Origin: Escherichia phage jat
Sequence record: NC_073076.1
DNA length: 44,417 nucleotides
Direction: 5' to 3' (one strand)
Shown here: positions 17,139-41,510 of the stretch, piece after piece
Position numbering within the stretch: the first letter of the stretch is position 1
Layout of the letters: the number at the start of each line of letters is the position of its first letter
Notes under the pieces: model-generated
Seen by the model: only the letters and a program-made list of their open reading frames with translations
Databases searched by the model: none
Told to the model about the DNA's origin: nothing
Position numbers and translations under genes: made by a program

Positions 17139-17309
17139 ATGCGTATTAAAGCCAGCGAAGTAAAAGTCGGGATGAAAGTATGGTCCAAGCTACTGGGGGA
17201 ATATTTCACAGTTGCCGAGATTCGCAACAACGGCGAAGAAATCGCCCTGTCCGACGGCATCTTCTCCATGATCGGCAGCGCTGACGCCGTAGTGAGGATA
17301 AAGCAATGA
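17139..17309 (+). CDS. small hypothetical protein (56 aa)
   Basis: MRIKASEVKVGMKVWSKLLGEYFTVAEIRNNGEEIALSDGIFSMIGSADAVVRIKQ; stop overlaps PolA start (ATGA). Confidence 0.4.
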   Translation: MRIKASEVKVGMKVWSKLLGEYFTVAEIRNNGEEIALSDGIFSMIGSADAVVRIKQ

Positions 17310-19597
17310 AAGACTTCGAACGTCTGTTTCTCGACACCGAGACATTTAGCGGGGTGGACCTGAAGAAAGTGGGGGCGTACGCCTACGCAGAGCACCCAAC
17401 CACCGAGATTATGATTTGCACCTACGCCATCGACGAGGGCCGCGTGCAGACATGGGATTGCACTGAATCCCCCACAATGCCGCGTGAACTGCGCAAGGCG
17501 CTCCGCCATGTTTCCCGCAAGAAAGCAAAAATAGTGATGGCTAACGGCCTCCTGTTTGACCGCCTGGTTATCCGTGAGAAGTGGGGCATCGACCTGCCGG
17601 TAAGCCAGATCGAAGACACCATGATTATGGCATTTCGCCACGCGCTGCCCGGTAGCCTCGATATGCAGTGCCAGGTGCTGGGCGTTGACGCAGAGCACGC
17701 GAAGGATAAGGCAGGCAAGGCGCTGATTAAACGATTCTGTAAGCCCACCCCTAAGACCTACAAAATCCGCCGCTACACACGCGAGACGCACCCCGAAGAA
17801 TGGGCCAAATTCTTGCGCTATGCCGCGCTGGATATTGTTGCCATGCGTGAAGTCTACTGGCGCATACCGGACTGGGGCAACTCACCGAAGGAAGATGAAA
17901 TCCTGCTCATCGACCAGTTGATTAACGACCGCGGCTTCTACGTTGACGTTGACCTGGCGAACGCCGCGATCAAAGCGGTGCAGGCGCATAAGGAAGAATT
18001 GAAGGAAGAAGCCTGGGAGCGGTTTGGCGGTAAGCTGACCGGCAATGACTTCCTGCCAATCCTGCGTGATATTGCGCCAGCATTCACGATACACAACGCG
18101 CAGAAATCCACACTTAACGACCTGCTTGAAGACCCGGACTTCCCCGACGAAGGCAAAGCGCTTATCGAAATGCGCCTCGGTGCGTCATCAACGGCATCGA
18201 CTAAGTACAATCCGCTAGTTAACGGCTTATCCGCAGATGGTCGCCGCCGTGGGTGTCTTCAGTATGGTGGCGCAAAGCGCACGCTGCGCTGGGCTGGTAA
18301 AGGCTTCCAGCCTCAAAACCTGGCACGCGGCGAGTATAGCGACGATCACGAAGGGAAGATTAAGCGCCGCGAAGGCGAGAGCGACGTTGCTTTTTGGGTC
18401 CGGTCGCACATGCTCACCAACGGCATCAATTCCCTGTTACGCGGGACCGCGCACTGGGCGTATGACATATCTAAGCTAACAGCCTCGACCGTTCGCGGGT
18501 GCATTATCCCGGCTAAGGGCAAGAAGTTTGTCGTAGCGGACTACTCTAACGTGGAAGGGCGTGGCCTCGCCTGGATCGCTGGTGAGAAAACCGCGCTAAT
18601 GGTGTTTAGGGCCGGTCGCGATATTTATTGTGAAACTGCCGGTAAGATGTTCGGCCTTGACCCGGAATACATTAAAGCCAACCGCAAAGACCTACGCCAG
18701 ATTGGTAAGGCGTGTGAGTTGGGACTTGGCTATGGCGGCGGCGTGGCTGCGTTCTTGCAGTTCGCTAAAAACCTGGGCCTCGACCTTTACGCGATGGCGG
18801 ACGTCATGAAGGGCACATTCCCCGATCACATTTGGGCAGCGGCTAAACGGGGTTATGAGTACGCCCGCATTAACGAAGCGAAGCGACCGCCGAAGCCGGG
18901 CAAGAAGGACGAGCGCCCGACTTACATACTGACTAAAAACGTTTGGCTGACCTGCGACGCGATCAAACGCATGTGGCGTGAGGCCCACCCGAAGACGGTA
19001 GCCTTTTGGGCCGAGCTTGAGGACGCGGTGTTGTGTGCAATCCGCAATCCTGGCAAAGCGTACTGGGCTGGCGCGAGCGTTCGCCCGGATGGTAAGAAAG
19101 CGCTCAAGATAGTCCGCACGAAGGCGAAGCATGACCCAACCTTCGACGAGGAACGCGACGACCCGAACGCCGCGGGGTGGTGGTTGAAAATTGAGTTGCC
19201 GTCGGGGCGTATTATGAGTTATCCGGGCATTGCGCTGTCTGTCACTACCGAGATCGACGAAGATACTGGCAAGAAACGCACCAGCACCCGCATTAAATAT
19301 CAGGGCGAGAATCAGACGACCCGCCAGTGGGGCTTCCAGTACACCTACGGCGGCAAACTCACGGAAAACATCGTACAGGCGCTGTGTCGCGATATCCTCG
19401 CATGGTCCATGCCTGGCGTTGAAGCTGCGGGATATGAGATCGTACTGTCCGTACACGATGAACTGATAACCGAAGTTCCGGATACTGACGACTACACAAC
19501 CGAGGAGTTGTGCGCGCTGATGTGCGACCTGCCTGTTTGGGCGAAAGGCTTCCCGCTTGCCGCGGAAGGCGACATTATGTACAGGTACAGGAAATAA
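17306..19597 (+). CDS. DNA polymerase, family A, with 3'-5' exonuclease domain
   Basis: 763 aa; exo motif LFLDTETFSG; motif A DYSNVEGR, motif B RQIGKACELGLGYGGG, motif C SVHDEL. Confidence 0.9.
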   Translation: MKDFERLFLDTETFSGVDLKKVGAYAYAEHPTTEIMICTYAIDEGRVQTWDCTESPTMPRELRKALRHVSRKKAKIVMANGLLFDRLVIREKWGIDLPVSQIEDTMIMAFRHALPGSLDMQCQVLGVDAEHAKDKAGKALIKRFCKPTPKTYKIRRYTRETHPEEWAKFLRYAALDIVAMREVYWRIPDWGNSPKEDEILLIDQLINDRGFYVDVDLANAAIKAVQAHKEELKEEAWERFGGKLTGNDFLPILRDIAPAFTIHNAQKSTLNDLLEDPDFPDEGKALIEMRLGASSTASTKYNPLVNGLSADGRRRGCLQYGGAKRTLRWAGKGFQPQNLARGEYSDDHEGKIKRREGESDVAFWVRSHMLTNGINSLLRGTAHWAYDISKLTASTVRGCIIPAKGKKFVVADYSNVEGRGLAWIAGEKTALMVFRAGRDIYCETAGKMFGLDPEYIKANRKDLRQIGKACELGLGYGGGVAAFLQFAKNLGLDLYAMADVMKGTFPDHIWAAAKRGYEYARINEAKRPPKPGKKDERPTYILTKNVWLTCDAIKRMWREAHPKTVAFWAELEDAVLCAIRNPGKAYWAGASVRPDGKKALKIVRTKAKHDPTFDEERDDPNAAGWWLKIELPSGRIMSYPGIALSVTTEIDEDTGKKRTSTRIKYQGENQTTRQWGFQYTYGGKLTENIVQALCRDILAWSMPGVEAAGYEIVLSVHDELITEVPDTDDYTTEELCALMCDLPVWAKGFPLAAEGDIMYRYRK

Positions 19598-20132: not shown

Positions 20133-20351
20133 ATGAAAGAACACTACCGACTCACCACACTGGGCGAATGCAAACCAGGCGATCGCGTATGGTTTATCGC
20201 GGGCATGAACTACCCGCTGCCGTTGACGGTGTGCTGGCAAAAATTTAAGAGCTTCCGGGCGACCGGCGTGCACATCGGACACGCCACCAACTACGACGCC
20301 ACAAAAAGGAACTGGAACAGTGAAACCGAAGTCTGGAAAAAGGCGGAATAA
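20133..20351 (+). CDS. hypothetical protein
   Basis: 72 aa from ATG 20133 (GGAGA SD 7 nt upstream); track ORF begins at TTG 20118. Confidence 0.4.
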   Translation: MKEHYRLTTLGECKPGDRVWFIAGMNYPLPLTVCWQKFKSFRATGVHIGHATNYDATKRNWNSETEVWKKAE

Positions 20352-21780
20352 AGAAATGGCACGATTCCGACGCCGCGAATATCAGAAGTTGATAACCGCG
20401 TTCATCCTCAAGCATAAGCGCTGCAATATTTGGGCGACAATGGGGTCGGGTAAAACCGGCGCGACCATGTGGGCGCTGAATAAAATGTTCCAGACCGGCA
20501 TCCTGTCCAACCAGGATGACCGCGTACTGGTGCTGGCCCCGCTGCGCGTTGCGTCCGGTACATGGCCCCCGGAACAGGAGAAATGGCGCTTCCCAGCCTT
20601 GCTGGTAGTAGACGGCACTGGGTCAGAGAAGGACCGCATCGCTGCGCTTGAGAGCGACGCTAACGTGGTTTGTATTAACTATGATGTAGTTGAGTGGCTT
20701 GTCGAGTATTGCGGCGACGAGTGGCCCTTTACGGTCGTGGTTGCCGATGAATCCACTAAGCTGAAAGGATATAGAAGCAAGCAGGGAAGTAAGCGCGCCC
20801 GTGCGCTGGCAGCGATCGCACATAAGCACGTCAAGCGCTGGATTAACCTTACCGGCACACCCGCACCGAACGGGCTGAAAGACCTATGGGGCCAGACGTG
20901 GTTTGTCGACGGCGGCGAACGCCTCGGCAGTAGCTATAAGGCGTTCACGGACCGCTGGTTTATTAGCAAGCCTGTTAAGCCTGGCAGCTTCACGATGCAG
21001 CACGCCCCGCTTAAGAACTCCGAGAAAGAAATACAACAACGTCTGTCAGATGTATCCCTCACCGTTGACGCGGCGGAATACTTCGGGTGCGACAAGCCAA
21101 TCTATACGCCGGTTGTTGTGGACCTGCCGAAGAAAGCGCGCAAGATTTATGACCAGTTTGAAAGCGAGCTATTTGCCGAACTGGAAAGCGGAACAGTGGA
21201 AGCGGCGAACGCGGCATCGAAGACAATTAAGTGCCTTCAGCTTGCATCCGGGGCCGTGTATAAGGTGGACGAAGACGGCGAACGGACCGACGAGTGGGTG
21301 AAGATTCACGACGCGAAGCTGGACGCGCTGGAAAGTATCGTGGAGGAGTTGAACGGTGCGCCGTTGCTCGTTGCGTATCAGTACAAGCATGACCTGGCAC
21401 GTCTTAAGAAGAAATTTCCGCACGGCGTTGCGCTGGGTAAAGGTAAGCAGGGAAATAAGGATATGGAAGCGTGGAACAGAGGCGAGATCCCCATCATGTT
21501 TGCGCACCCGGCATCGGCGGGCCACGGCCTTAACTTGCAGGACGGCGGTCATCACCTGGCAATCTTCTCCGATACCTGGAACTTTGAGCACTTTTCGCAG
21601 ATCGTTGAACGTATCGGGCCGGTTCGCCAGATGCAAGCAGGACACCCCCGTCCGGTATTCGTCTACATTATCCAGGCGCGCGGAACACTGGACGAACTGG
21701 TCGCCGAGCGTCGCGACAGTAAGCGGGATATTCAGGACGACTTGATGGAATACATGAAAGCTAAGAAGGCGCGCAAATGA
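20320..21780 (+). CDS. SNF2-family helicase / ATPase
   Basis: 486 aa; Walker A-like GSGKTG, DEAH-like VVADESTKLK; probable true start ATG 20356 (MARFRRREYQ) after SD. Confidence 0.75.
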   Translation: MKPKSGKRRNKEMARFRRREYQKLITAFILKHKRCNIWATMGSGKTGATMWALNKMFQTGILSNQDDRVLVLAPLRVASGTWPPEQEKWRFPALLVVDGTGSEKDRIAALESDANVVCINYDVVEWLVEYCGDEWPFTVVVADESTKLKGYRSKQGSKRARALAAIAHKHVKRWINLTGTPAPNGLKDLWGQTWFVDGGERLGSSYKAFTDRWFISKPVKPGSFTMQHAPLKNSEKEIQQRLSDVSLTVDAAEYFGCDKPIYTPVVVDLPKKARKIYDQFESELFAELESGTVEAANAASKTIKCLQLASGAVYKVDEDGERTDEWVKIHDAKLDALESIVEELNGAPLLVAYQYKHDLARLKKKFPHGVALGKGKQGNKDMEAWNRGEIPIMFAHPASAGHGLNLQDGGHHLAIFSDTWNFEHFSQIVERIGPVRQMQAGHPRPVFVYIIQARGTLDELVAERRDSKRDIQDDLMEYMKAKKARK

Positions 21781-25387: not shown

Positions 25388-25963
25388 ATGTACGGCGAAT
25401 ATGAAATATCCGGTAAACAATTCCACCTGGCGGCAATGATAGCAAGCATCGAGTTTGATCAATGGCGCTTAAAGTCCGACGCGTGCAAGCAAAGCCGTCT
25501 TGTTGGTGTGCTGGGCGAGATGTTTGCAGGAATGTACCTTGAGGGTCAAGCGGGCGGGCGTAGTTGCATACCGCAAGGCTTACTAATGCGTACCGGCCTG
25601 TTTAGCGCCAATACCATCGACCGCGGCGATATCATCATGGTCGGCAAGCGCAAGGTAAAGTCCGGTCCAGACTTCCGCGAGCATGTGATCGATGCCGTAT
25701 GGACCTACGAGGTTAAGGCCACCAGCGGCATCCGTCGAGGGCTGGTAGAGGCGCGTTGCGCTCGCGAATATCTATCACGTCGCGTTGCCGGCGTTATCCT
25801 GGTGGGTGTATCGTTCTGTCAGCACAGCGCGCATGGCGTGATTGAGGATATCGCAGAGCCATACGTGATTGTGAACGATTGGCCTTTGGTGGAAGTGGAA
25901 GGAAAGGAATATTACGAAAGCCCGCTGGTGCGGCGCAAAATGGACTGGGAAAACTCAAACTAA
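25388..25963 (+). CDS. hypothetical protein
   Basis: 191 aa; last gene of plus-strand block, followed by bidirectional terminator. Confidence 0.45.
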   Translation: MYGEYEISGKQFHLAAMIASIEFDQWRLKSDACKQSRLVGVLGEMFAGMYLEGQAGGRSCIPQGLLMRTGLFSANTIDRGDIIMVGKRKVKSGPDFREHVIDAVWTYEVKATSGIRRGLVEARCAREYLSRRVAGVILVGVSFCQHSAHGVIEDIAEPYVIVNDWPLVEVEGKEYYESPLVRRKMDWENSN

Positions 25964-25995
25964 AAAAGGGGCCGTATGGCCCCTCTCTTATTTCT
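25961..25995. terminator. bidirectional rho-independent terminator
   Basis: aggggcc/ggcccct 7-bp stem with gtat loop, A6 upstream and T-rich downstream, between convergent genes. Confidence 0.6.
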
Positions 25996-27418
25996 TCAAA
26001 TCTTCCGCCTGCTTCAACGCCGCGATCTCCGCCTTCAAATCCTCCACCTGCTTAATCGTATCCTGCAACGCTCGCATAGTGTCGAGTAACAGCGGCGCCG
26101 TATCCAGTTCAAGCTGGTGCACCAGCGGCCCGTTCAGTTCTTCGTTGTGGTATATGCGGTGCTTTACATACAGGGGGTCGATTTCTTCCAGTTCTTGCGC
26201 GATAACACCGCGGCGCTGCCGTTCCTGTTCGTCGTTGTTGAATACGAATGTGCGGAATCGCATAGCCTTAATGTTGTCGTATGCTGTGCTGCTGGTGTCA
26301 TCGGCAATATCGTGCTTAAGGTTGCGGTCCGACGCTGGCACTTGCTGGAATGACCCCGACCCCTCTGACCCCGCCGAGTAGGAGATAGTGCCTCGAAAGC
26401 TGAATCTGAACTGGGTCTGTCGGTCTATGTTACCAGCCGCGTCGCGGTCCATTGTGCCGACGGAAATCTGCGCAGTAGGCCAACTGGCCCCGCCAGTCGT
26501 CATCATGCCAAACGCAACGCCACTGGAAAAGCCGTACCCGGAAGTGCCAACCGCGCCGCCTACCAGAGATTGGTAGTTTTCCACGCCGTTGTCCGCAAGC
26601 CAGGCAGGGCCACGGAATAGCGCGCCTGACCACAATTGGCTATAGCCCATGTTTGTTTTCGTAGCCGTGAAATTTTGGGCGGTGACCTGCGACGGGGTTC
26701 GCCAATCTGACGCGTCGAAGTTATACACAAATTGTGTTGGGTATCCACCCTCAGTGCCGAGCGGCATAACATACATCCCCGGAGGCGACACGCCGTCGGG
26801 CATGAGCATTAACAGCGACGCCCTTACTTCTGCGGTCCCCCAGCTATTCCCGTCCCACGTAGCCCGTCCTGCTTGGATACGCGCGTTGGTGACTAGTCGG
26901 TTGACGGTAACGTTATCCGTCGGCCCGATGCCTAAGTGACCGCGCGCTGCCGCGGGGTCATCAACGTCGCTAAGGTTGTTGGACTTAGCCAGAAATTTCG
27001 ACGGGTCGATCTGCTTCATTAGCTGCGACAGATAGCCCCATGACATGCCCTGCATAACCTGCCCGTTAGGTAACGACACTGTTATTTCTTCAGCGTCGCC
27101 GAAGATTGCACGCCAGTTGTTTTCATCTGCGATCATCAAGCGCAATGCTTTTTGGGCCTGTACGGTAACGCCCATCGTTGCCAGTGACATGGTATCGCGC
27201 TTAACGCCATCCCACGCAAGGCCGGTTGCCGTCGGGCCGTCGAACGGCAACACCAGCGTGAGCGCGGTTGCGCTTTCAATGGACGCGATTGCCACGGTGT
27301 AGGGGACTTGCCCTACCACCAGCGTTAAGAAGTCGCCAGCTTTAAACGCGGTAAACGTCGTGTCAACCCCTTCAACCGCCTTGCTGTTATTCGTTACGGA
27401 TAGTGTGCCCGCTGCCAT
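25988..27418 (-). CDS. tail fiber protein with C-terminal intramolecular chaperone (peptidase S74-like) domain
   Basis: 476 aa; Gly/Ser/Thr-rich body; C-terminal SDRNLKHDIADD ... GVIAQELEEIDPLYV ... coiled-coil tail typical of autoproteolytic IMC domains. Confidence 0.65.
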   Translation of the reverse strand: MAAGTLSVTNNSKAVEGVDTTFTAFKAGDFLTLVVGQVPYTVAIASIESATALTLVLPFDGPTATGLAWDGVKRDTMSLATMGVTVQAQKALRLMIADENNWRAIFGDAEEITVSLPNGQVMQGMSWGYLSQLMKQIDPSKFLAKSNNLSDVDDPAAARGHLGIGPTDNVTVNRLVTNARIQAGRATWDGNSWGTAEVRASLLMLMPDGVSPPGMYVMPLGTEGGYPTQFVYNFDASDWRTPSQVTAQNFTATKTNMGYSQLWSGALFRGPAWLADNGVENYQSLVGGAVGTSGYGFSSGVAFGMMTTGGASWPTAQISVGTMDRDAAGNIDRQTQFRFSFRGTISYSAGSEGSGSFQQVPASDRNLKHDIADDTSSTAYDNIKAMRFRTFVFNNDEQERQRRGVIAQELEEIDPLYVKHRIYHNEELNGPLVHQLELDTAPLLLDTMRALQDTIKQVEDLKAEIAALKQAEDLKK

Positions 27419-27497
27419 AGCTAAATCCTCGTAATTGGTTGCAATCCTGGTTGAGAGGTGTAATACTAAAACTCAACCAAATATAGGAGATGATAAC

Positions 27498-27716
27498 ATG
27501 AAAACTTTAATTATGATTTGTGCGGTTCTTCTGTCCGGTTGTGCCGGTATGCCGTCTAAAATCTGCGACGCGACATATATGAATAGCGGTATGGAGTATT
27601 CTGTACCAGTGTTCGGTGTCGCCGACTTTAGCGGGCACAAAATGCTCAAGGCGGGGTATCCGTTCAACTTCCAGTATGTGTCGGTCGACCACTTCAAAAG
27701 CACCACCTGCAAATAA
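27498..27716 (+). CDS. small lipoprotein, Cor/Llp-like superinfection exclusion candidate
   Basis: 72 aa; signal peptide with lipobox LLSGC; AGGAGA SD; opposite strand to the flanking tail fiber genes. Confidence 0.5.
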   Translation: MKTLIMICAVLLSGCAGMPSKICDATYMNSGMEYSVPVFGVADFSGHKMLKAGYPFNFQYVSVDHFKSTTCK

Positions 27717-27736
27717 GCCCCTTTCGGGGCTTTCTT
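27714..27736. terminator. terminator-like hairpin
   Basis: agcccc/ggggct stem with tttc loop followed by TTCTTC; between convergent gene ends. Confidence 0.4.
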
Positions 27737-28410
27737 CAATCATAATTGGCCGTGTTAATCGCCATAATCGCGTTGCCGTTGTTAGTATACCCCACCACAT
27801 CCCCCGTGGCGTTCCCCGACGACGCTGCTGATATACGCGTTCGCGACCCATCAAATCTGGCCCCCGTGTACGCCGTTACCGATATTACTTGCGGCTGGCC
27901 CTGCACAAAAAACCGGATCAGCGTAGACCCCAATATGCCCGGAGCGACGGCGTAGCTGCCATTTAGCGTCTGGTCAATGTTAATCCCCCCGTTAGCGCCA
28001 GGAGATCCGACGGTAACTAAATCGCTTAGTACGCGACTCTCATTAGTAAGTACTAGCTTCCCCGTCTTATCCCAAATAGCGAAGCCCCACCGCGGAAGGG
28101 TCTGTGGGAATATGGCAAAGATGTAAGCCGTCATCGTGAAGCCTCGCCCGAATGGATTGCTGGCGCTCACCTTCACCACATTACCAACGCGAGAAGACCC
28201 TACGACGGTCGGCTGGGCGGTGTGCGTAGTTTTCACAAACGCTATTGCCGGGTAGTCACCACCCAAATTAATATCGGCAGCCGCCGACTGCGCAGTGCCG
28301 TTTGCCGAAGACCCAACAACCACACGGCGGAATAGACAAAACGGCGTCGATTCTGGCGTGATAAACGGGTTGCCGTTTGGTAAGTCAATCAACGCGCCGT
28401 AATTAGCCAT
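27736..28410 (-). CDS. tail-associated hypothetical protein
   Basis: 224 aa, Gly/Thr/Asn-rich; between J-like gene and tail fiber gene. Confidence 0.4.
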   Translation of the reverse strand: MANYGALIDLPNGNPFITPESTPFCLFRRVVVGSSANGTAQSAAADINLGGDYPAIAFVKTTHTAQPTVVGSSRVGNVVKVSASNPFGRGFTMTAYIFAIFPQTLPRWGFAIWDKTGKLVLTNESRVLSDLVTVGSPGANGGINIDQTLNGSYAVAPGILGSTLIRFFVQGQPQVISVTAYTGARFDGSRTRISAASSGNATGDVVGYTNNGNAIMAINTANYD

Positions 28411-28712
28411 TATGCTCGCTCCACAAAAACAATAACGTCACATTCAGATGCGGAGTAAACCCCGCCACCTACCGCACTTGCCGCGGAAACCGTGATAGTG
28501 TTCCCGCTGGCGGTTATTCTGCGGCCTGGCCCGACCGCGCCTTTATCCAGTGCGACCACGTATCCGACCTTCATCCCCGCCGGTACAGGGAATGACCATG
28601 CGCCTGATTTTTGTCCTTCCGCAAGATGAATCCTTCCGATCACGCTTACCGGTTTAATGCCGTAGTTGTTTGGGCGTCCTTGCGCGTCCCACGTTGCGAT
28701 ACCGAATGCCAT
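28410..28712 (-). CDS. hypothetical protein
   Basis: 100 aa; ATGA-type junction with downstream gene. Confidence 0.4.
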   Translation of the reverse strand: MAFGIATWDAQGRPNNYGIKPVSVIGRIHLAEGQKSGAWSFPVPAGMKVGYVVALDKGAVGPGRRITASGNTITVSAASAVGGGVYSASECDVIVFVERA

Positions 28713-28723
28713 AAATAACCTCG

Positions 28724-28746
28724 TTAAAAAGGGGCCGAAGCCCCTA
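28724..28746 (-). terminator. rho-independent terminator (minus strand)
   Basis: aggggc/gcccct stem with cgaa loop; U5 on minus strand (plus A-run 28726-28730); just downstream of J-like stop. Confidence 0.5.
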
Positions 28747-28748
28747 TA

Positions 28749-31700
28749 CTACCAGCTACCAGTAAGCTCACCAATCTGCACGCGGAGAACGCCGTTTCCG
28801 TCCTTCACGCTTATTCTTGTGTTCGTCTGTTTCATCCCGCCGCCGCTACCGGTGCCCAGGTTGATAAACGTTCCATCTTTCCCTAAGCGCCAGCCGCGCG
28901 TGCTGCCGTCGTAGTTATTCGATTGCAGCGTGTCTGTTATCTGCGCGAAGTTGATGGACGCGTTCTTGATGCGTGCCGTGTCGATATACACCGCGCCACC
29001 GTCCACAATAAACGCAGACGACAGCGTCCCATTGGACGGATGCATGATGTAGAACTGGTCCGCCTTGAACGCAATACGCGATTTAACCGCGTTGCCAGAC
29101 GTCACAACGGAAAGCTGCATACCCGCATCATAATAAGTCCCGTTATATGTCACGCCAGCCTTAAGGCTATACGTGGCGCTACCACCAGAGTGGTTAAACG
29201 AGGACGTCATCTTCTGCTCGATAGCGGCGGACTGCTGACCGAACTGTGCAGCGACCTGGGTCTTATATTCCGCCAGCGCTCCCGCCACGTCTGCGGTTGC
29301 CGTTTGTACCTGCTGGATGGCGGCTTCTTGTTCCCCGAACTTAGCGGCAACAGTTTGCTGATACTGGGCGAACGCTTGTTCCTGTGTGCTCTGCGCGGTC
29401 TGCAACGTGTGGATCGCAGCTTCCGCGTCATCAAGTCGCGTGCCGATCAACGTCTCCAGTTGAGCGACCGCCTTGTGGGCGTCCGCCGCCGCGTTATACG
29501 CGACCGAGATTTCCGCATAAATACCCTTGTACTCGGCGCGGGCGTTGAACAATTGCTGCGCGTCGGTGAGCATCGCCTCGTAAATACCCTGCGGGATCGT
29601 GTTGATTGCTTCCTGGAAGCGTTTACCATCCTCGGAAGTCAAGAACTCGTCATCAAGCCCCTTCATGTACTCGTCAACTTTGTCACTCACCTGCCCTTCA
29701 AACGGGGCCGACCAGTCCGACAGGTTGCCGATTTTATCCGCTACACGGGCGCGCAACTGCTGGTAAATTCCGAACTCCAGCGATGTTTGCGCATACTCCG
29801 CCCCCGGATATGGGACGTTGGTAAGGAATTTCCATTCAGTCTCACCGGTCTTGCGCACTTCAAGCTCGGTGTACGAGATATCAGTAGCGGCGTTGTTGTG
29901 GTTCCACTTCCACAAGATCTGGTGAAGGCCCGAAATAGCGTTGGTGATGATTGGTGCGTTAAGCCCACCGAGACGACCTTCCACCGGCGTGATGGCGGAC
30001 GACACCCACGGAGATGAAATCTCGCCCATACCGATCGCGCGGACGCGTGCCTGATAGTTACCGGAGAACACGTTGGGGATGTGCGCGCCGTTCGACGCCG
30101 TGCGTGGGATATTCACCCAGTCGTTACCCCACTGGATTTCCATATTCTGCAAGCTGGTACGTCGCCACTGGATTTCATACACCACGGCATCCTTCACCGG
30201 AGGGAATACAATATCCACGTTGGTGATTAGCTGGCCTTGCGATGAAATCTGCGACGGGGTGATGGTCACGGATTCCGGCCCCTTCATTACACCGTCAGGC
30301 ACTTGCGTAAAGATGCCAGGGTCAAGGCGAGCGCCATTATCAACGGCATCATACTTGCTATCGTTGTATTCAATCCCGCGCACCGAGAAAGTGCTCGTAG
30401 AGTCGTCATATTCCAGGTCGGTGATGCGGAATTTTTGCAACTGGATATCGTCGCCATCAACGCAAAACGGCTGGTCTGGAATCGGGTCGGCATCAAGTGC
30501 GGTTTTTAGCGTAACCTTGTTGCCGTTGACGCTGGCGATCTCGCGAGTCTCCACATTACCGCTATCGGTGCGTACCAGGAACTTATCGCCAGGGCGGAAT
30601 GTGATTTCGCTGTCCGTGTTCAGCACGGTACGCGTTCCAGGGTCCGACAACAGGCGACCGCCACGAGTCTCGAATCCGCCAGAAATATTAGTATCTGCGA
30701 TCGCAACTACGCTACCGGGGATAAAGAATAACCCCTCCATGCCCACCTTAAAACTAACTTGCTGGTCAAGCTGGTTTGAGATTAGCGCCCAGTGCCCCCG
30801 GCGTTGCGCTTCAGATTCACGCGTACAGCCGATCGCCGTAATATCAAGACGGTTAATCTTATGGCGGCGTACCAGTTCGACACGTTGCCCCGTTGCGATA
30901 GCATCTTCATAGTGGTTTTTCGGATTGCCGTATGCTACCGCGAATGTGGAATAGCGCGTTTTCTGGCTACCAGATGCGTAGTCGAATCGCCCATCAATTA
31001 CCGAGGCGTTGGTGATAGTGTGCGACACCGCCGCGACCGGTTGGTCACTGACGATATTCAACATCTGGTTACCCCACCAGGTCATTCCGGCGAAGATGGC
31101 CGCCAAATCCTTAAGCACGGTCCAGGCGTCTGTCTGCGACTGGATGTACATATCATTCTTAAAGCGGATTTCTCGACCACCGTTGCCGTCGCTGACCAAC
31201 TGATCGCAGCGCTGCGCAATCTGGTAGAGCGCGTACCGGTTTAACATTTGCGGTTTGATACGCCGACCGAGGCCGAAGCGCTCAGTAATACAAATATCGT
31301 ACCAGTGCCACGCAGGGTTATCCGTCCATGCGCGTTTAAACGTGCCGTCCCAGTCCCCGGAATAGGTATGATTAATCGGGTCGTAGTTGTTCGGTATTAG
31401 AACTTTACGGCCTTTGCACTTGATGGACACGCGCGGGATGTTCTGGAACGCTTTGGCGTCGAACTCCACAAACAACAGCGCGGTTAGCGGGTAACGCAGG
31501 CGGGCGTCAATAATCTCAGTGATGGACTGCACCCGGATATCATTAACCACTTTCGCCGATGTGGAGTCTGCCGTTATGCGGTGCACCTCCACGCGCCAGC
31601 CGGTGTTAACGTTCGGAGGTAATTCGATGCGGTGGTCGCGCTCATATAGCGACATTGTTTTACCAACGGCGGCGAATCTGAACTCACGCGGGTCGGCGTT

Positions 31701-32168
31701 ATCCGTATACACAACTATCTTATAGTCGATGCGCCCGCCCACCAGGTCGCCATTATCTTCGTTAGTGTACAGGGCTGGAATGCCGATGCGAATGCGAACA
31801 GCGTCCAGACTGGTATCGTTAATCTGGCGCACCCACGGCGTGCCGTTTTCCAGTTTTACGCCGACAGATTGCTCACTTTCCACCGCTGAAAATCCGTGGA
31901 TCACATCCTGGTGCTGTGTGCCGGGGCGGAACTCCACACGCGCGCCAGGGAAGTTTTCGGACAGGTCAGCGTTCTGGATCGGTGTTCCGTCCAGGTAAAC
32001 ACGCTGCCGCAATTCGCTGGCGCTGGTAATACTTTCGAATTCACCCTCGCCCAGTGCAAGCAAGATGCGGATTTTAGCCAGCGAATGCAGGCTATCTGGC
32101 GTCTCCTGTGGGGTGTGCTGTTTGCCGCCGCCGCCTTTATGCCCTGTGACGTCGTAGATAATCGTCAT
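28749..32168 (-). CDS. tail tip / host specificity protein (lambda J-like)
   Basis: 1139 aa; size and position after I-like gene match lambda gpJ. Confidence 0.8.
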   Translation of the reverse strand: MTIIYDVTGHKGGGGKQHTPQETPDSLHSLAKIRILLALGEGEFESITSASELRQRVYLDGTPIQNADLSENFPGARVEFRPGTQHQDVIHGFSAVESEQSVGVKLENGTPWVRQINDTSLDAVRIRIGIPALYTNEDNGDLVGGRIDYKIVVYTDNADPREFRFAAVGKTMSLYERDHRIELPPNVNTGWRVEVHRITADSTSAKVVNDIRVQSITEIIDARLRYPLTALLFVEFDAKAFQNIPRVSIKCKGRKVLIPNNYDPINHTYSGDWDGTFKRAWTDNPAWHWYDICITERFGLGRRIKPQMLNRYALYQIAQRCDQLVSDGNGGREIRFKNDMYIQSQTDAWTVLKDLAAIFAGMTWWGNQMLNIVSDQPVAAVSHTITNASVIDGRFDYASGSQKTRYSTFAVAYGNPKNHYEDAIATGQRVELVRRHKINRLDITAIGCTRESEAQRRGHWALISNQLDQQVSFKVGMEGLFFIPGSVVAIADTNISGGFETRGGRLLSDPGTRTVLNTDSEITFRPGDKFLVRTDSGNVETREIASVNGNKVTLKTALDADPIPDQPFCVDGDDIQLQKFRITDLEYDDSTSTFSVRGIEYNDSKYDAVDNGARLDPGIFTQVPDGVMKGPESVTITPSQISSQGQLITNVDIVFPPVKDAVVYEIQWRRTSLQNMEIQWGNDWVNIPRTASNGAHIPNVFSGNYQARVRAIGMGEISSPWVSSAITPVEGRLGGLNAPIITNAISGLHQILWKWNHNNAATDISYTELEVRKTGETEWKFLTNVPYPGAEYAQTSLEFGIYQQLRARVADKIGNLSDWSAPFEGQVSDKVDEYMKGLDDEFLTSEDGKRFQEAINTIPQGIYEAMLTDAQQLFNARAEYKGIYAEISVAYNAAADAHKAVAQLETLIGTRLDDAEAAIHTLQTAQSTQEQAFAQYQQTVAAKFGEQEAAIQQVQTATADVAGALAEYKTQVAAQFGQQSAAIEQKMTSSFNHSGGSATYSLKAGVTYNGTYYDAGMQLSVVTSGNAVKSRIAFKADQFYIMHPSNGTLSSAFIVDGGAVYIDTARIKNASINFAQITDTLQSNNYDGSTRGWRLGKDGTFINLGTGSGGGMKQTNTRISVKDGNGVLRVQIGELTGSW

Positions 32169-32782
32169 TCGTTCAAGTCCTCGGTTACGATTCCGGCTGA
32201 AATAATAGCGCCGCCGATCTCACGCTCGCCCCATAATACACCAAGAGCCGTGCCTTGCGCGGTAGTGTTTACTGGGCCGCCGAACGCATACGACGCCTTG
32301 TTATCCACGTCCTGCCTTGTCTGCAATCCCTTCGGTTGTGGCGACAGCAATTGCATAACGCCACCCAGCGCCATCGACATCCCGAACGAAAACGTCGCCG
32401 TCCCGATAGCGGCAGCGGTTGCAGCCGAAGCCCCGAAAGCGGCAGTAGCAAGTCCGCCCGTATAGAACGACGCCACTACGATCGCGACACCCGCCAGCAA
32501 TTGGCCCAGTCCGCTTTTTGCCCCAGTCATAACCGGCGCGATTGTTACTACGCGGTTGCCGTGGAACTCGCCCAGCTCATCGTAGCCGGTCATTGTGTGA
32601 TTGCCCTTGCGCACTTTGAACATCATGTTGTCCAGGTGGGCCGACATTAGAAAGTCCTGTAAGCCGGGTAACTTCACGCACAGGCCGGTGATGCCTTCGC
32701 CTGGTGTGAAACAGTCCAGCTTATGCACTTTACCAAAACGACGTCCTAAGACGCCGTACAATTTAAATGTGGTCATTGCCAT
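32165..32782 (-). CDS. tail assembly protein (lambda I-like)
   Basis: 205 aa; Gly/Ala-rich central region; position between K-like and J-like genes. Confidence 0.65.
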   Translation of the reverse strand: MAMTTFKLYGVLGRRFGKVHKLDCFTPGEGITGLCVKLPGLQDFLMSAHLDNMMFKVRKGNHTMTGYDELGEFHGNRVVTIAPVMTGAKSGLGQLLAGVAIVVASFYTGGLATAAFGASAATAAAIGTATFSFGMSMALGGVMQLLSPQPKGLQTRQDVDNKASYAFGGPVNTTAQGTALGVLWGEREIGGAIISAGIVTEDLNE

Positions 32783-33513
32783 TCTGTGATATTCCCCGGT
32801 AGGTCTTTATGACGTACCCATTTAACCACATTGTCCCGGAAAAATCCCGCCCGGAAGGGAACGACGCTCGACAGGCTGCCGTAGATATGGTGTAGTAGTT
32901 GGTTGCCCGGAAGGTAGATTCCAGCGTGGTTTGGCACTGGTGCGCTGATCTGCATGATGACCATCGCCCCTGGCGTATTCTCCTCACACTCCCGGAAGCC
33001 CGCGCCATACCAATTGTCCATATACAGGTTTTCGCCTGTCTCCCACCAGTTGTACGGTACGCGGAAGTCTGGCAGGTTTACGCCCTGCTTTTTATGCCAG
33101 TCCATAACGAGGCCATAACAATCCGTAATTCCGAGAACAAATCGGCGACCTACCAGCGGCGGGTCTTCCGGGTCGATCTCGATAAAGTCGCCATATTCGT
33201 TAGTGATGGTCCAGACGACGCCGCTGCCGTTGCATCCATTAACGTCGCCCAATGACGGTGTTAGCTCGCGCTGACCGGGGTGCGAGTGGACTACGCGCAC
33301 AACGTCGCCCATATCCTCGGCATCCATCCAGGCCATATCACTAATTGTAAACGCGTCCTTTCGCGAGCGCGCGCCGGTTGGGTCTTCGAAGACGTTCAGG
33401 CACGGGATAAACACTTGTTTGCGGCCCACCATGACGACCAGCCCGCACGCTTCTTCCGGCAGACATGCCGCAACGTGTGCGGCGATATCGCGTTTAACCT
33501 TCTTCGTTAACAT
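32773..33513 (-). CDS. tail assembly protein (lambda K-like; MPN/JAMM plus NlpC/P60 domains)
   Basis: 246 aa; E..CG and HSHP..S..D JAMM-like motif followed by Cys (DCYG) and His (NHAGIY) of NlpC/P60-like domain. Confidence 0.85.
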   Translation of the reverse strand: MLTKKVKRDIAAHVAACLPEEACGLVVMVGRKQVFIPCLNVFEDPTGARSRKDAFTISDMAWMDAEDMGDVVRVVHSHPGQRELTPSLGDVNGCNGSGVVWTITNEYGDFIEIDPEDPPLVGRRFVLGITDCYGLVMDWHKKQGVNLPDFRVPYNWWETGENLYMDNWYGAGFRECEENTPGAMVIMQISAPVPNHAGIYLPGNQLLHHIYGSLSSVVPFRAGFFRDNVVKWVRHKDLPGNITEWQ

Positions 33514-33515
33514 GA

Positions 33516-34304
33516 CTACCCCTTAATTAATCTGGACCCTGGAAAGCCGCCGAAGTCCAACACTGCGGCTTTGGGATCCGCAAGACCTTGACCAAAACGA
33601 AGATAGCAGTCGGACAAACAGCCGCCGCATCGGTCCATATTCATCGCGATGACTTCATTACCCCGCTCGTCGTAATACTTGATACCTGGCTTCGCAAGGT
33701 TCCAAGTGCACCCGTCCCCGCTGGCGTACTTCCCATTTAACGCCCATTCGCACATATTCATGATTTGGCGGCGGGGAACTACTTGCCCCTCCATATCCGC
33801 AGGAGAGGATAGTGCGAAGGTGATTTGCTTGCCAGGATTGCGCCCGACCTGCGAGTCAATGTAATACTCCTGAACTCGTTTCTGCGTCGGGTCTGGATCT
33901 GTCCCGTTGTCCAGGAACTTCGCGAACGTATCAATGATCTCAACCTTCGCGCCCAGTAGCTGGTCGTGATTCAGCGACAGCCGGGTTATTATGCCGCCAA
34001 TATCGACGATTGTTAGTTGCGGTTCTGCGGCCGTTGATGTGGAGAAGTTGAGGCCGGACAAATCGAAGGGCCAAAATTCGAACTCCTGCCCGCCGAAGAA
34101 GATGGATTTAGGTTTTAGCTTGTCCTCGTCACCGCCTGCGGCGGCAATATCCTCGGCAGTGTGCGGGATAAAGCAATAGTGAAAATAGTGATGACCCGCG
34201 CCGATCGCGCCGTCGCCGGGCTCCACGTCCTGCGCGTCAATGTGAATCAGGCGAACGCGTCCCGATGGGTCAAAGCGCGTCGCCTCGCGATATAGTTTAT
34301 TCAT
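33516..34304 (-). CDS. minor tail protein (lambda L-like)
   Basis: 262 aa; C-terminal Cys cluster CGGCLSDC as in gpL. Confidence 0.7.
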   Translation of the reverse strand: MNKLYREATRFDPSGRVRLIHIDAQDVEPGDGAIGAGHHYFHYCFIPHTAEDIAAAGGDEDKLKPKSIFFGGQEFEFWPFDLSGLNFSTSTAAEPQLTIVDIGGIITRLSLNHDQLLGAKVEIIDTFAKFLDNGTDPDPTQKRVQEYYIDSQVGRNPGKQITFALSSPADMEGQVVPRRQIMNMCEWALNGKYASGDGCTWNLAKPGIKYYDERGNEVIAMNMDRCGGCLSDCYLRFGQGLADPKAAVLDFGGFPGSRLIKG

Positions 34305-34939
34305 CTTACGAATCCAATAGCAGTCTTAAGGGTGGCGGATACCGTTGCCGTGTAGTGCCCGTTGTCAGTGTACGACAAGCTCGAACGCTCGACCACGAAT
34401 AAACCTGTTTCGCCATCCGGCGCGGTGACGACAAACGGTTTGACGAAGTGCCCGCGAAGGAAGTTGTAAACCAGTTTAGGGTTGCACCACTTGTCAGTAG
34501 TCAGTCCGATGAATTGCACGGGGAACTGTTTCGTTTCGGCGTTCGGGCCGTCCGCGATGTTCTGACCGTAACCGTTACCAAACTGCAATTCCTCGGACCG
34601 GAAAGCCAACTGCACGTCTCCGCCGCCTTGCAATTGCATGTGCCAGTAATAGGGCCATTCGTTTGATCGCGGGTCGTGCGCTTCGATTAGCTCATAAGCT
34701 GCACCGGCTTTTGTCGGTCCGGCCCAGTTATCCGCCAGGGTGATGACGGTGTTAGAGTTGAATGCCGCAATTTTTCCGGTGTAGTCGTTGCCGTCGATGC
34801 GGGTAAATACGCTGACCTTCCCGATCTCGCTCAGGAACGCGGTTCCCACGCCTGTGATGGTCTTACTTCCCTTAGTTAGTGTGATTGTACCTTGCGCCAT
34901 AAAAAAGCCCCCACGTTGTAGTGAGGGCCATTTTATCAT
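34301..34939 (-). CDS. minor tail protein (lambda M-like C-terminal domain with N-terminal extension)
   Basis: 212 aa; C-terminal block FGNGYGQ...FIGLT resembles gpM; ATGA overlap with tape-measure stop; alternative ATG at 34900 preceded by a hairpin. Confidence 0.65.
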   Translation of the reverse strand: MIKWPSLQRGGFFMAQGTITLTKGSKTITGVGTAFLSEIGKVSVFTRIDGNDYTGKIAAFNSNTVITLADNWAGPTKAGAAYELIEAHDPRSNEWPYYWHMQLQGGGDVQLAFRSEELQFGNGYGQNIADGPNAETKQFPVQFIGLTTDKWCNPKLVYNFLRGHFVKPFVVTAPDGETGLFVVERSSLSYTDNGHYTATVSATLKTAIGFVR

Positions 34940-37578
34940 CGTTTGTAAAGTACACCACCCGGTTTCGTCGCCTTCACGATCTCGGCCTTGACCGACTCGG
35001 TGATTTGCTTTCCGAACGCCTGCGCGGTGCGCAGGTCTGGACCGCTAACACTGGTATCCGTCTTACCGGTCCCCATGTTAACGTTGGTCGTTACAATCAT
35101 CCCTCCGCCTACACCGGCAGCGACAACGCCCAGTTTGCCGTCCGGGCCGCGCTTCAGTGGCATGATGGCCTCGGGTCCGGCCTCCCCCATCAATCCCGCG
35201 CCCTTTGCGAACGCCTGGACGCCGTAACTGAAAAAGGTGGGCTGGCTTACCACTTGCCCCGAATAGGCCGCGAGATTGCCCCCTGCGTACGCTCCTCCGT
35301 CCGCATTCTTAGTTAGGCCAGAGAAGATAGCGCCGAACAATCCGTTTTTGCCGCCGTCGCCACCGAAAGCGCTAACGATGGACTTGAATGCCTGCGAGGT
35401 AGCCAGCTTGATTAATTCGCTCAGGATGGACTTAACCATATCCTTTGCGTTCAGCTTGCCAGTCTCGAAAAACTCGTTCATCGTGTCCTGCATAGCGCCG
35501 AACGTGAATTTTGTGAGTGACGTCATCTGCGTGTAGCCGTTACCCATTTCATCCACGCTATCCTTAAGCCCGCGGCTGAAGCCATCCCATAGCGAGGCGT
35601 TAGCACCGGTCTGTGCTTCCTGCACTTCGCGCAGCTTAGACACCGCCAGGTCAATATCGGTATCGTTAGCACCAACGCGCTTAAGGCGGTCAATCAGCTG
35701 TAATTCTTCGCGCAGGTTAGCCGCTTCGCGAGTGGAAAGCGCATAGCCCGCCGCGGTGGCTTTTAGCTCGGCGTTCTGGTTCTTAACGAAGGCGTCGATC
35801 TGCGCGTGCGCCTTGACCTGCTTCTCTTTCGCGTCCAGCAATTTGGCTTCTTCGACGATCTGCTCGCGTACTTCCTTCACGCGTCCGAATTCGACCATCT
35901 GCTGCTTTTCTGCTGCCGTTAGTGCTCTTTCTTTGCTTGCTGCGATTAACTGCTCATTATCCGCGATCAGCTTGTTTAGGGCCGCCTGCGCGCGTTGCGT
36001 GCGGGTCTGCGTCGATGCGTTGGCTTCGATCTGCTTGCCGGATTCTCGAAGCTGGGCCAGTTCGCTCCGTGCTACTTCCAGCATTTTCAGCCCGGCATCG
36101 ACTCGAACAGCGGCGGCCTTCTTCGGGGCGGGGTCTTTGTACCGCTCGTTGACCTGCTTCACCGCCTCGGCAAGCTCTTTCTCGTCAATCACGCCACGCT
36201 TATTAAGCAAATTGAGGCGGGCGATCTCGTCGGCGCGCCTCTTCGCGTTGGTTGCGTACTCCTTCTCAAACGCGGCGCGGTCGCGGGCGGTGCGGTTTGC
36301 CTCTTCGTTCGCCTTTGCTGCTTCGTCAGCGGCACTTGCGTTGTCTCGCTCTGCACGGTTGCGCAGGGTGAGCGACGCCACTACTTTTTCCTGGGCTACC
36401 AGTTCGCTGTAAAGCATGTTAATACGCGCTTTCTGCGCTTCGGGCATCACCCCACCGGCAGCGTTTACCGCTTTCATCTCGGCATAGTAAGCCGTGGTCA
36501 GTCGCTGCAATGATTCACGCGCTTTCATCTCTGACTCATTCGAGGACTGCGCGCGCCCGACATCCAGGATGGCATCCCACATAGATTTAGCTGCCGATGT
36601 AACGACGTTCATCGACCGCTCAAGCGTACCCATGTTGGACTTGATCTCATTGGTCATAGTGGTAAACGACGCTGCGGCTGTTTTGTTAGCCAGCGCCACC
36701 GCTTCGGTTTCGCGACCAGCCGTCACTAGTGACTGCACCTGCTGGATCTGCGCTTCGTTTACGACGTGATACTTATCCGCCAGCGCACGCAGTCCGCCAA
36801 CGGGGTCGGTTGACAGCTTCGCCACCGCCGCTACCACATCCTCGATCGGCTGGCTGGACGCCTTCGCAAAGTCATTAGCTACCTTAGCCAATGCGCCGAA
36901 GTCACCACCCGCTTTCACACCCGCCGCCGCCAGCGCCTGGATTGTGTCACGCGTCTTGCGGAATGATCCGCCCATGCGCTCGGCGTTCTCGGATAACACC
37001 AGGATCTGGTTTGCAGTGAGGCCGGAAATGTTACCTGACAGCGCCAGCGTCTTGTTAAGCGCGGCGACCTGGTTCTCTGCGCGGGACGTAATTGCCACGC
37101 CCACGCCTAACGTTGCCGTTACGGCGGCGAGGCCGATCCCTACTGGGCCGAGGAAGCCCGCAACATAACGCAGCGTGTTACCCAGTCCACCGAACGCCCC
37201 AGTTAGCTGCGGTAACTGCTGAAGCATGACGCGGTGAACCGGCATCCCCATCTCAAGCGTTACCGCAATATCCTGTAGCTGGAATGCGGCGTTACGCGAG
37301 GCAAAGCCCAGGTTTTTAGTCGACATCCCTAACCTGTTGGCGAGTCGCTCCTGTTTCGTCATGCCATCGGCGGCGCGCTGCGATTCGTTTGCCAGCTTTT
37401 CCATTCCGCCCGCGGCGTCACTCGTCACCTTTTTGGATTTGCCGAGGGTGTCGTTTAATTTCTTAACCTTGTTTTCTGTGTTCTCGGATTTCTGTGCGAA
37501 GGAGTCCAGCACAGTATTTGCCGTTCTGATTTGTGCAACATCAGCCTTTAGCGTGATGCCTGCTGCCTGATCTGCCAT
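34936..37578 (-). CDS. tail tape measure protein
   Basis: 880 aa, Ala/Lys/Glu-rich coiled coil with Gly-rich C-terminal region; longest gene after J. Confidence 0.8.
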   Translation of the reverse strand: MADQAAGITLKADVAQIRTANTVLDSFAQKSENTENKVKKLNDTLGKSKKVTSDAAGGMEKLANESQRAADGMTKQERLANRLGMSTKNLGFASRNAAFQLQDIAVTLEMGMPVHRVMLQQLPQLTGAFGGLGNTLRYVAGFLGPVGIGLAAVTATLGVGVAITSRAENQVAALNKTLALSGNISGLTANQILVLSENAERMGGSFRKTRDTIQALAAAGVKAGGDFGALAKVANDFAKASSQPIEDVVAAVAKLSTDPVGGLRALADKYHVVNEAQIQQVQSLVTAGRETEAVALANKTAAASFTTMTNEIKSNMGTLERSMNVVTSAAKSMWDAILDVGRAQSSNESEMKARESLQRLTTAYYAEMKAVNAAGGVMPEAQKARINMLYSELVAQEKVVASLTLRNRAERDNASAADEAAKANEEANRTARDRAAFEKEYATNAKRRADEIARLNLLNKRGVIDEKELAEAVKQVNERYKDPAPKKAAAVRVDAGLKMLEVARSELAQLRESGKQIEANASTQTRTQRAQAALNKLIADNEQLIAASKERALTAAEKQQMVEFGRVKEVREQIVEEAKLLDAKEKQVKAHAQIDAFVKNQNAELKATAAGYALSTREAANLREELQLIDRLKRVGANDTDIDLAVSKLREVQEAQTGANASLWDGFSRGLKDSVDEMGNGYTQMTSLTKFTFGAMQDTMNEFFETGKLNAKDMVKSILSELIKLATSQAFKSIVSAFGGDGGKNGLFGAIFSGLTKNADGGAYAGGNLAAYSGQVVSQPTFFSYGVQAFAKGAGLMGEAGPEAIMPLKRGPDGKLGVVAAGVGGGMIVTTNVNMGTGKTDTSVSGPDLRTAQAFGKQITESVKAEIVKATKPGGVLYKR

Positions 37579-37642
37579 TATGCAGTCCCCTTTTTTATGC
37601 AGTTGCCGATGGATATTGTATCAGCGATTTCAAAACAAACCT

Positions 37643-37960
37643 TATTCAGTCTCAGACGAGGGGGCCATTGACCCCCGTCTAGTCTGAAAGACTGGGGTGC
37701 TGTCCCGCTGTCCCGATCGGCTGAAAACCGCGGCAGCACTGGCTGGGACGGGGTGCTGTCCCGCTTTGTCCCGCCTAGTGTTTGTCCCGCTTTTTGTCCC
37801 GTTTGTTTTATGCACGAAAACCGAATACGTATGCACTTTTGTGGGGTGGGACAAAACGGGACGTCCCGCTTGTCCCGCTTTTATATTATGCAATGGAAGT
37901 GAGTAGGTATGCAGTTTCACATGGGTGGGACAAAACGGGACGTCCCGTTTTGTCCCGCTT
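37643..37960. repeat. iteron element copy B plus two 45-bp direct repeats containing GGGACGTCCC
   Basis: Hairpin 37648-37694 and TGTCCCGC/TGTCCCGT octamers at 37701, 37709, 37757, 37767, 37783, 37795; direct repeats 37831-37880 and 37909-37960, each with palindrome GGGACGTCCC followed by TGTCCCGC. Confidence 0.65.
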
Positions 37961-37962
37961 CA

Positions 37963-38639: not shown

Positions 38640-38652
38640 TGTAGTATTCTCC

Positions 38653-38680
38653 AATAAAAAAGGGGCCGTGCCGGCCCCAT
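38653..38680 (-). terminator. rho-independent terminator (minus strand)
   Basis: ggggccg/cggcccc 7-bp stem with 3-nt loop; U7 on minus strand (plus A-run 38655-38661); downstream of major tail gene. Confidence 0.6.
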
Positions 38681-38708
38681 ATTATCACTCGCTATCTAAG
38701 CGACCAAA

Positions 38709-39434: not shown

Positions 39435-39494
39435 AATAAAGCTCCTGTTTAGATATACGGTTTAATGATACAGCACGCGCAGAATTGCGCCAAA

Positions 39495-40510: not shown

Positions 40511-40511
40511 G

Positions 40512-40871: not shown

Positions 40872-40969
40872 CCTCCTGTACCGGTGGTTCCGGTTCTGGC
40901 GCTGGTTCCGGTTCTGGTTGGCGTTTAGTATTTGCGGCGATTATCGCCGCGAGTAATGCAGGATTCATA

Positions 40970-41470: not shown

Positions 41471-41482
41471 TGTATTCACTCC

Positions 41483-41510
41483 TATAAAAAAGGCGGGCAT
41501 AAGCCCGCCC
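41483..41510 (-). terminator. rho-independent terminator (minus strand)
   Basis: ggcgggc/gcccgcc 7-bp stem with ataa loop; U6 on minus strand (plus A-run 41485-41491); downstream of major capsid gene. Confidence 0.6.

Follow-up and report, generated by a model that had tools for sequence, protein, structure and literature searches.

The closest described counterparts of the gene discussed here are the phage lipoproteins Llp and Cor. Llp, from phage T5, is a small outer-membrane lipoprotein whose target is FhuA; its gene is divergent from that of the receptor-binding protein pb5, and a promoter is annotated for it. [quoted passage not shown] Whereas the interaction of Llp with FhuA is known from a crystal structure, that of Cor with FhuA is proposed from models (bioRxiv 10.64898/2026.03.26.714494); an AF3 model of FhuA with the Cor protein of the T1-like phage KanT1 has an ipTM of 0.84. 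Models of Cor and Llp have a common fold (bioRxiv 10.64898/2026.03.26.714494), and others have concluded from the models that the two proteins probably share a mechanism (PMC13164509; bioRxiv 10.64898/2026.03.26.714494). In temperate phages, cor is a lysogenic-conversion gene that is expressed from the prophage (bioRxiv 10.64898/2026.03.26.714494). The Rtp45-type lipoproteins of LptD-dependent siphophages, in which a periplasmic lipoprotein disables the phage's own receptor (PMC12685063), follow a logic that parallels that of Cor.

Here, we describe a gene which, with high confidence, we assign to the Cor family of superinfection-exclusion lipoproteins, in a virulent, FhuA-dependent Dhillonvirus. 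The gene itself adds nothing new: its family, its cassette and its genus are known, GenBank records that are 90–100% identical already label it as cor, and published work has connected the cor cassette of Dhillonviruses with FhuA.

Genome and gene order

The window (the whole 44,417-bp stretch of DNA that was analysed) is the complete genome of a Dhillonvirus, a virulent E. coli siphophage of the HK578/SO-1-like kind. It is colinear with Escherichia phage UHP65, with a 1-base offset and 94% nucleotide identity across 37 kb, and phages welsh and EC115 are 98.5% identical to it at positions 27300–27900. The head and tail genes form a minus-strand block that runs from 25988 to ~43545 (17.6 kb). 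A preliminary description had presented cor as the sole plus-strand gene in a 17-kb minus-strand tail block, and this holds because the annotation of colinear UHP65 places every other CDS at 25989–43544 on the minus strand, cor being the only one on the plus strand. The UHP65 annotation contains neither an integrase nor a repressor, and its lysis genes (lysin and holin) correspond to ~6969–7979, 20 kb from cor.

Two further features of the genome may be mentioned. Where the lateral fibre gene on the minus strand and the early block on the plus strand both end, a strong hairpin, GC-rich and with T runs on either side, lies between them (25961–25990); it is likely to be a bidirectional terminator bordering the two gene blocks. 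The DNA polymerase gene of Sodalis phage SO-1, of the same genus (30312–33500 in that genome), contains, according to its annotation, a self-splicing group I intron that encodes an HNH endonuclease; the polymerase ORF of the window (17306–19597), unlike the SO-1 gene, runs without interruption.

The cor gene and its product

The cor gene occupies 27498–27716 on the plus strand, from an ATG at 27498 to a TAA at 27714–27716, and encodes a 72-residue prolipoprotein that begins MKTLIMICAVLLSGC followed by AGMPSK. A Shine–Dalgarno sequence, AGGAG, can be read at 27485–27489 (plus strand), 8 nt 5′ of the ATG, and relatives keep GGAG or GGGG. A longer ORF beginning at an in-frame TTG at 27435 was considered and is unsupported; the homologues all begin MKTL or MKKL.

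The signal peptide and lipobox (Leu12-Ser13-Gly14-Cys15) are encoded by 27498–27542 on the plus strand, the codon for Cys15 being 27540–27542. The N-terminus, with Lys2, a hydrophobic core of 10 residues, the lipobox LSG before Cys15 and an alanine at +2, is that of a textbook lipoprotein signal peptide (MKTLIMICAVLLSG immediately before Cys15). In 84 family members Cys15 is invariant and Gly14 is at least 90% conserved. Cleavage by LspA is predicted before Cys15. The residue at +2 of a lipoprotein governs its sorting, according to an established rule, and the alanine found here predicts that Cor is sorted to the outer membrane.

The protein matches the curated NCBIfam equivalog model NF047972 (‘phage exclusion lipoprotein Cor’) with a score of 62.8 bits, the cut-off being 31 bits, and with residues 2–71 aligned to profile positions 2–76 of 78. 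A full-length match is also obtained to PHROG 1119, ‘Cor superinfection exclusion protein’ (E 5e-28). No Pfam model matches the protein, which is uninformative because both NCBIfam and PHROGs do. A word-indexed protein search returned 6 close relatives only, and a profile search of a 5.8-billion-protein collection was then used; it gave 333 clusters, mostly from enterobacterial prophages, many of which are named ‘phage exclusion lipoprotein Cor’. With tblastn, annotated Cor proteins were found in 244 phage records, identity being 100% for EC115, 56% for aalborv, 49% for T1 (annotated ‘lysogenic conversion protein Cor’), 45% for HK75 and 42% for N15 gene 24, and near-identical phage records carry the annotation ‘super-infection exclusion protein cor’. 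Across the 84 Cor sequences, Cys15, Cys23, Gly53, Phe66 and Cys71 are invariant, while Ala52, Pro55, Phe56 and Val61 are at least 90% conserved. The family motifs AGYPF.. and F..(S/T)TC are present, as are the two cysteines near the ends of a mature protein of ~57–60 residues.

Amongst five Dhillonvirus alleles, dN/dS for cor is 0.07–0.20, with dS of up to 0.8. This is purifying selection, and cor is therefore a protein-coding gene under constraint; positive selection is ruled out by the same values. It might be argued from its shortness (72 codons) and its orientation, opposite to all its neighbours, that the ORF arose by chance, antisense to a non-coding spacer. The chance of this is negligible: hundreds of Cor proteins are homologous to the ORF over its full length, its Shine–Dalgarno sequence and start codon are conserved, and selection has acted on it at dS of up to 0.8, so that the homologues, the NF047972 match, the profile search and dN/dS together refute such a reading. 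The preliminary description had taken the 72-codon ORF with its strong Shine–Dalgarno sequence, signal peptide and lipobox to be a genuine gene, and all of these features are borne out, the lipobox by the invariance of Cys15 in the homologues.

A small lipoprotein encoded amongst tail genes could also serve some purpose other than exclusion, for instance as an o-spanin-type lysis protein or as a tail-fibre assembly factor, but we regard this as extremely improbable, the equivalog model for Cor being one that the protein satisfies. With regard to lysis in particular, the lysin and holin genes are the 20 kb distant pair noted above, the Rz-like spanins of SO-1 are annotated beside the head genes and not at the position of cor, and no i-spanin gene that could be its partner is present near 27.5 kb; the protein is thus outside the lysis cassette and is not placed amongst the o-spanins (Rz1-like proteins). 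As for the fibre, an exported lipoprotein cannot chaperone an assembly process that takes place in the cytoplasm.

Predicted structure and relationship to Llp

The mature domain lies between the invariant residues Cys23 (27564–27566) and Cys71 (27708–27710), that is, 27564–27710 on the plus strand, as defined by the invariant columns of the alignment and by an AlphaFold2 model. This model, made with the 84-sequence alignment, has a pLDDT of 83, rising above 90 for residues 21–70, and is a five-stranded small barrel. Cys23 and Cys71 are predicted to form an intramolecular disulfide of this small β-barrel.

When the model was compared with the PDB using Foldseek, the sole full-length match was T5 Llp from its complex with FhuA (8A60, chain B; TM 0.53/0.61, the higher value being for the target length). 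This match ranked second and has an rmsd of 3.0 Å over 59 columns (59 of 62 residues) with 24% identity; its E-value is only 0.039, and small barrels of the Tudor/chromo type score alike. The modest statistics reflect the tiny size of the domain. Matches in BFVD were to lipoproteins of T5-like phages and to a ‘receptor-blocking protein’. By sequence, 8A60 chain B was the top PDB match, but with an E-value of 0.31; identity is 26% in an alignment with the cysteines matched, and at ~24–26% identity the resemblance of Llp to Cor is not significant by sequence alone. Cys23 and Cys71 align with the cysteines of Llp; the predicted fold and the cysteine pair both have equivalents in the T5 protein.

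The Cor/Llp-like, receptor-blocking character originally proposed for the protein is supported by NF047972, PHROG 1119, the position of its gene in the cassette (see below), the Llp-like predicted fold and direct comparison with Cor sequences (the 49% and 42% identity to T1 Cor and N15 Cor given above).

The receptor-binding cassette and FhuA

The gene order around cor is J, 100-aa gene, 224-aa gene, cor and lateral tail fibre, all but cor being on the minus strand. The J-like central tail fibre or tip attachment protein (28749–32168) has the Pfam domains FNIII-A_GpJ, Phage-tail_3 and Phage_Tail_Tip. The 100-aa protein (28410–28712), which is the second small gene product of the locus, belongs to PHROG 557 (E 1e-32) and is 73% identical to N15 gp22 and 54% identical to T1 orf32. 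The 224-aa protein (27736–28410) belongs to PHROG 425 (E 1e-69), is part of the receptor-binding locus, which is of the FhuA type, and is 64% identical to N15 gp23 and 52% identical to T1 orf31; the locus is regarded as a bona fide receptor-binding protein locus (PMC8594841). [quoted passage not shown] The lateral tail fibre gene (25988–27418), divergent from cor, encodes a protein with a C-terminal intramolecular chaperone (Peptidase_S74, PF13884, E 1e-12; PHROG 1980) and 31% identity to N15 gp25.

The cassette is common to T1, aalborv, N15, HK75 and Erwinia phage Midgardsormr38; in SSU5, the two small genes and cor come after a tail fibre/adhesin pair, which takes the place of J. The position of cor beside the receptor-binding genes, which had been likened at the outset to that in known Cor phages, is indeed the same as in T1, N15 and HK75. 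The Cor proteins of T1 (orf30, AAP49969) and of other virulent Drexlerviridae such as aalborv are 49–56% identical to the present one over the full length, and share its lipobox and cysteines. In these phages the order is likewise J, a gene of ~100 codons, a gene of ~212–229 codons and cor, the last being on the opposite strand and convergent, with a GC hairpin in between. They differ in that recombination genes come after cor, where the present phage has the lateral tail fibre gene; cor here is therefore truly embedded in the tail block, unlike in T1 and aalborv. The region 5′ of cor is also unrelated in T1 and aalborv, except for a TTGCAA hexamer resembling a −35 element in T1. The Cor proteins of the temperate phages N15 (gene 24), HK022/HK75, phi80 and the mEp phages are 40–45% identical and share the invariant residues. 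As here, the temperate-phage cassette includes a lateral fibre gene, which lies 3′ of cor (the 31% identical gene 25 of N15), but in temperate phages cor is on the strand of the tail genes and its product has a 3-residue insertion after the lipobox that is absent here. T5 differs in having one large receptor-binding protein, pb5, as against the two small proteins of the present phage.

The receptor of the phage is almost certainly FhuA. This assignment is made by proxy from JLBYU60, whose dependence on FhuA has been shown by experiment (PMC10373560); J, the 100-aa protein and the 224-aa protein are 99.3%, 99% and 99.6% identical, respectively, to those of JLBYU60, and the two Cor proteins are 89% identical. 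Amongst the Drexlerviridae and Dhillonvirus phages of the BASEL collection, the cor cassette co-occurs with the use of FhuA, and the full three-gene cassette is found in FhuA users only (PMC13164509); its link to FhuA-dependent phages, Dhillonviruses included, has been made in several studies (PMC13164509; PMC8594841; PMC11990801).

It is nonetheless conceivable that a lipoprotein with the Cor fold blocks a different outer-membrane receptor, such as BtuB or another TonB-dependent transporter. Cor-like proteins have been reported in BtuB-dependent Markadamsvirinae and in one Tempevirinae species (PMC13164509), T5-like phage lipoproteins are amongst the BFVD matches to the model, and cor diverges more in its mature part (83–87% nucleotide identity) than do the neighbouring genes. 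We consider a target other than FhuA to be very unlikely for the present phage, given the 99% identity of J and the receptor-binding locus to those of JLBYU60, the 89% identity of its Cor, and the restriction of the full cassette to FhuA users noted above.

Proposed function of Cor

For the Cor protein described here, we adopt an Llp-type mechanism of FhuA blocking, by analogy with the structural work on T5. The cor gene would form a transcription unit of its own, with a σ70-like promoter and a closing hairpin, which should free its expression from that of the late tail operon that it interrupts. The precursor would be exported, lipidated at Cys15 and cut by signal peptidase II, whereupon the 57-residue, disulfide-clamped β-barrel may bind the periplasmic face (the plug) of the TonB-dependent transporter FhuA. 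Binding would then force the extracellular loops of FhuA over the phage-binding site, as has been shown for T5 Llp, so that FhuA would cease to bind the receptor-binding proteins of the phage itself and also those of other FhuA phages. In consequence, superinfection would be prevented, and progeny would not be wasted on the debris of lysed cells. In this scheme the promoter and its timing, lipidation and sorting, the binding of FhuA and the allosteric mechanism are all inferred. The simple one-to-one Llp model may be incomplete, a reservation prompted by the title of Arguijo-Hernandez et al.

The same block of FhuA can be read with a different emphasis, in which the benefit selected in this strictly lytic phage is not the exclusion of competitors but an ‘anti-suicide’ function, whereby released progeny are spared irreversible adsorption to FhuA in the envelope fragments of lysed cells. 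According to the authors of the BASEL study, Cor in T1 and Llp in T5 are encoded by virulent siphophages to keep offspring from adsorbing to debris (PMC11990801), the KanT1 paper says likewise, and the annotation of the colinear genome lacks an integrase or repressor. Such a benefit is compatible with superinfection exclusion, however, since both follow from one receptor block, and the sequence holds nothing that separates the two; we would put the prospect that protection from debris is what has been selected at slightly short of evenly balanced. Whichever benefit has been the more important, the practical value of the locus is predictive: cor and the adjacent genes indicate the use of FhuA, and infected cells should therefore resist phages of the T1, T5 and phi80 types, a predicted cross-resistance that bears on the design of phage cocktails.

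Transcription and orientation of cor

A putative σ70 promoter for cor lies at 27439–27467 on the plus strand, and is composed of a −35 hexamer TTGCAA (27439–27444), a spacer of 17 nt and an extended −10 element, TG-t-AATACT (27459–27467). It was missed by the promoter scanner because its score of 8 out of 12 is below the threshold of 9. Six Dhillonviruses and SO-1 have kept it unchanged, and at the equivalent place T1 has TTGCAA-17-TACAAT.

Downstream, between the convergent cor and 224-aa genes, the GC-rich hairpin AAGCCCC-TTTC-GGGGCTT (27715–27732) dominates the centroid fold. It is kept in six Dhillonviruses, with a two-sided change from G-C to T-A in JLBYU37, and its T1 counterpart is annotated as a rho-independent terminator. 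A simple terminator scanner made no call at 27715–27732, yet the hairpin is likely to be a terminator that works in both directions. Terminator hairpins had been proposed on both flanks of cor. The downstream one stands, on the evidence of the fold and its conservation, but the upstream one, TGGTTGAG...CTCAACCA (27449–27478), does not. This AT-rich element has a loop of 14 nt and lacks a T tract, it folds no better than shuffled sequences do (z-score −0.9), and relatives carry substitutions that disrupt its pairs, none of them compensated.

The orientation of cor separates the phages in which it is found. In the temperate phages N15, HK75, Midgardsormr38 and SSU5, cor and the tail genes share one strand, whereas in the virulent phages T1 and aalborv, and in all Dhillonviruses examined, cor is inverted, so that it converges on the 224-aa gene (or its counterpart), with the GC hairpin between them. 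The inversion would give a lytic phage an independent cor transcription unit, which would suit a protein that is needed before the late tail operon is switched on; the inverted unit is probably expressed early.

A minus-strand promoter-like site (27537–27510; CGGACA-16-CATAAT, 9 out of 12) is present within the signal-peptide codons of cor and faces the lateral fibre gene. Without it, transcription of the lateral fibre gene would be read-through across cor in the antisense direction. The site might be part of the reason that phages with a different exclusion gene have also conserved this segment.

A genus-wide intergenic repeat

The motif that had been noticed in front of cor, TTGGTTGCA at 27435–27443 on the plus strand, overlaps the putative −35 hexamer and proves to be over-represented, as a copy of an intergenic repeat found across the genus (on the basis of counts against shuffled sequences and synteny with SO-1). 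With up to one mismatch allowed, TTGGTTGCA has 24 sites, as against 11.7 ± 3.8 in shuffles, none of which reached 24. The 8-mer TTGGTTGC has 21 copies in the window, against an expectation of ~1.4–1.8, and SO-1 has 21 copies at syntenic sites, 15 of them in the intergenic 6.5% of the genome (p 5e-14). Copies of TTGGTTGC(A) are frequently paired, 14–35 bp apart, and occur in both orientations; examples from the 21 are those at 6711, 6734, 10023, 10054, 10426, 10461, 16225, 16241, 22794, 22811, 24725/24730, 27435, 43536 and 43550. Five copies are found in the 480-bp gap at 9991–10474, which matches the annotated ‘repeat region B’ of SO-1.

The repeat is probably an operator for a regulator. It does not behave as a fixed promoter element, given that it lies anywhere from ~1 to 18 nt from −10-like hexamers and faces the downstream gene in some cases and away from it in others; a σ54 reading, judged from the sequence, does not fit the GG/GC spacing either. 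A literature search on the TTGGTTGC motif string returned unrelated primer sequences only.

Proposed exchange of the exclusion cassette

Comparison of the window with SO-1 reveals where homology is interrupted. It covers the N-terminus of the fibre and the intergenic region, extends 49 nt into cor, ends at 27546, and returns at 28877, at the last ~43 codons of J (28749–28876, which belong to the swappable cassette). The segment that differs is thus 27547–28876 in the window and 20301–21622 in SO-1, where it encodes a 321-aa protein and a 73-aa lipoprotein. The latter (gp24) agrees with Cor at every one of residues 1–16 and is unrelated to it thereafter: gp24 occupies the same Dhillonvirus slot, behind the same promoter region and with the same 16-residue signal peptide, but its mature domain is dissimilar and BLASTP aligns residues 1–16 only. 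Its partner receptor-binding protein is the single 321-aa protein, encoded on the strand of the lipoprotein. From its size and arrangement, the SO-1 cassette appears to be of the LptD type. Of 60 Dhillonvirus-type records, sampled so as to be spread out, ~25 are homologous only as far as ~27541–27549, ~13 as far as the hairpin and 18 throughout; with ~25 of the 60 breaking there, the junction immediately after the lipobox is recurrent.

These junctions lead us to the tentative proposal, which we hold to be somewhat more doubtful than probable, that the Dhillonvirus backbone provides a fixed ‘socket’ for an exclusion gene, that a 1.3-kb cassette is swapped as a unit, and that TTGGTTGC acts as an operator which times the exclusion gene with the early genes. 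The socket may be made up of promoter, 5′ UTR and the codons for the signal peptide and lipobox. The cassette would comprise the mature domain of the exclusion protein, the receptor-binding protein or proteins that match it, and the last ~43 codons of J. The cassette junction in the signal peptide and the conserved intergenic repeat could aid the engineering of receptor swaps in small siphophages.

Divergence is uneven across the locus. Mature cor is amongst the more divergent segments, the 83–87% nucleotide identity mentioned above comparing with 98–100% in the adjacent receptor-binding genes. For 27546–27716, dS amongst Dhillonviruses is 0.35–0.8 (0.12 in one closely related pair), whereas for the 224-aa and 100-aa genes (27736–28712) it is 0–0.09, about ten-fold lower, and the change occurs at the hairpin. 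Because divergence differs in this way across the hairpin, its two sides are suggested to have had separate histories of recombination or selective sweeps.
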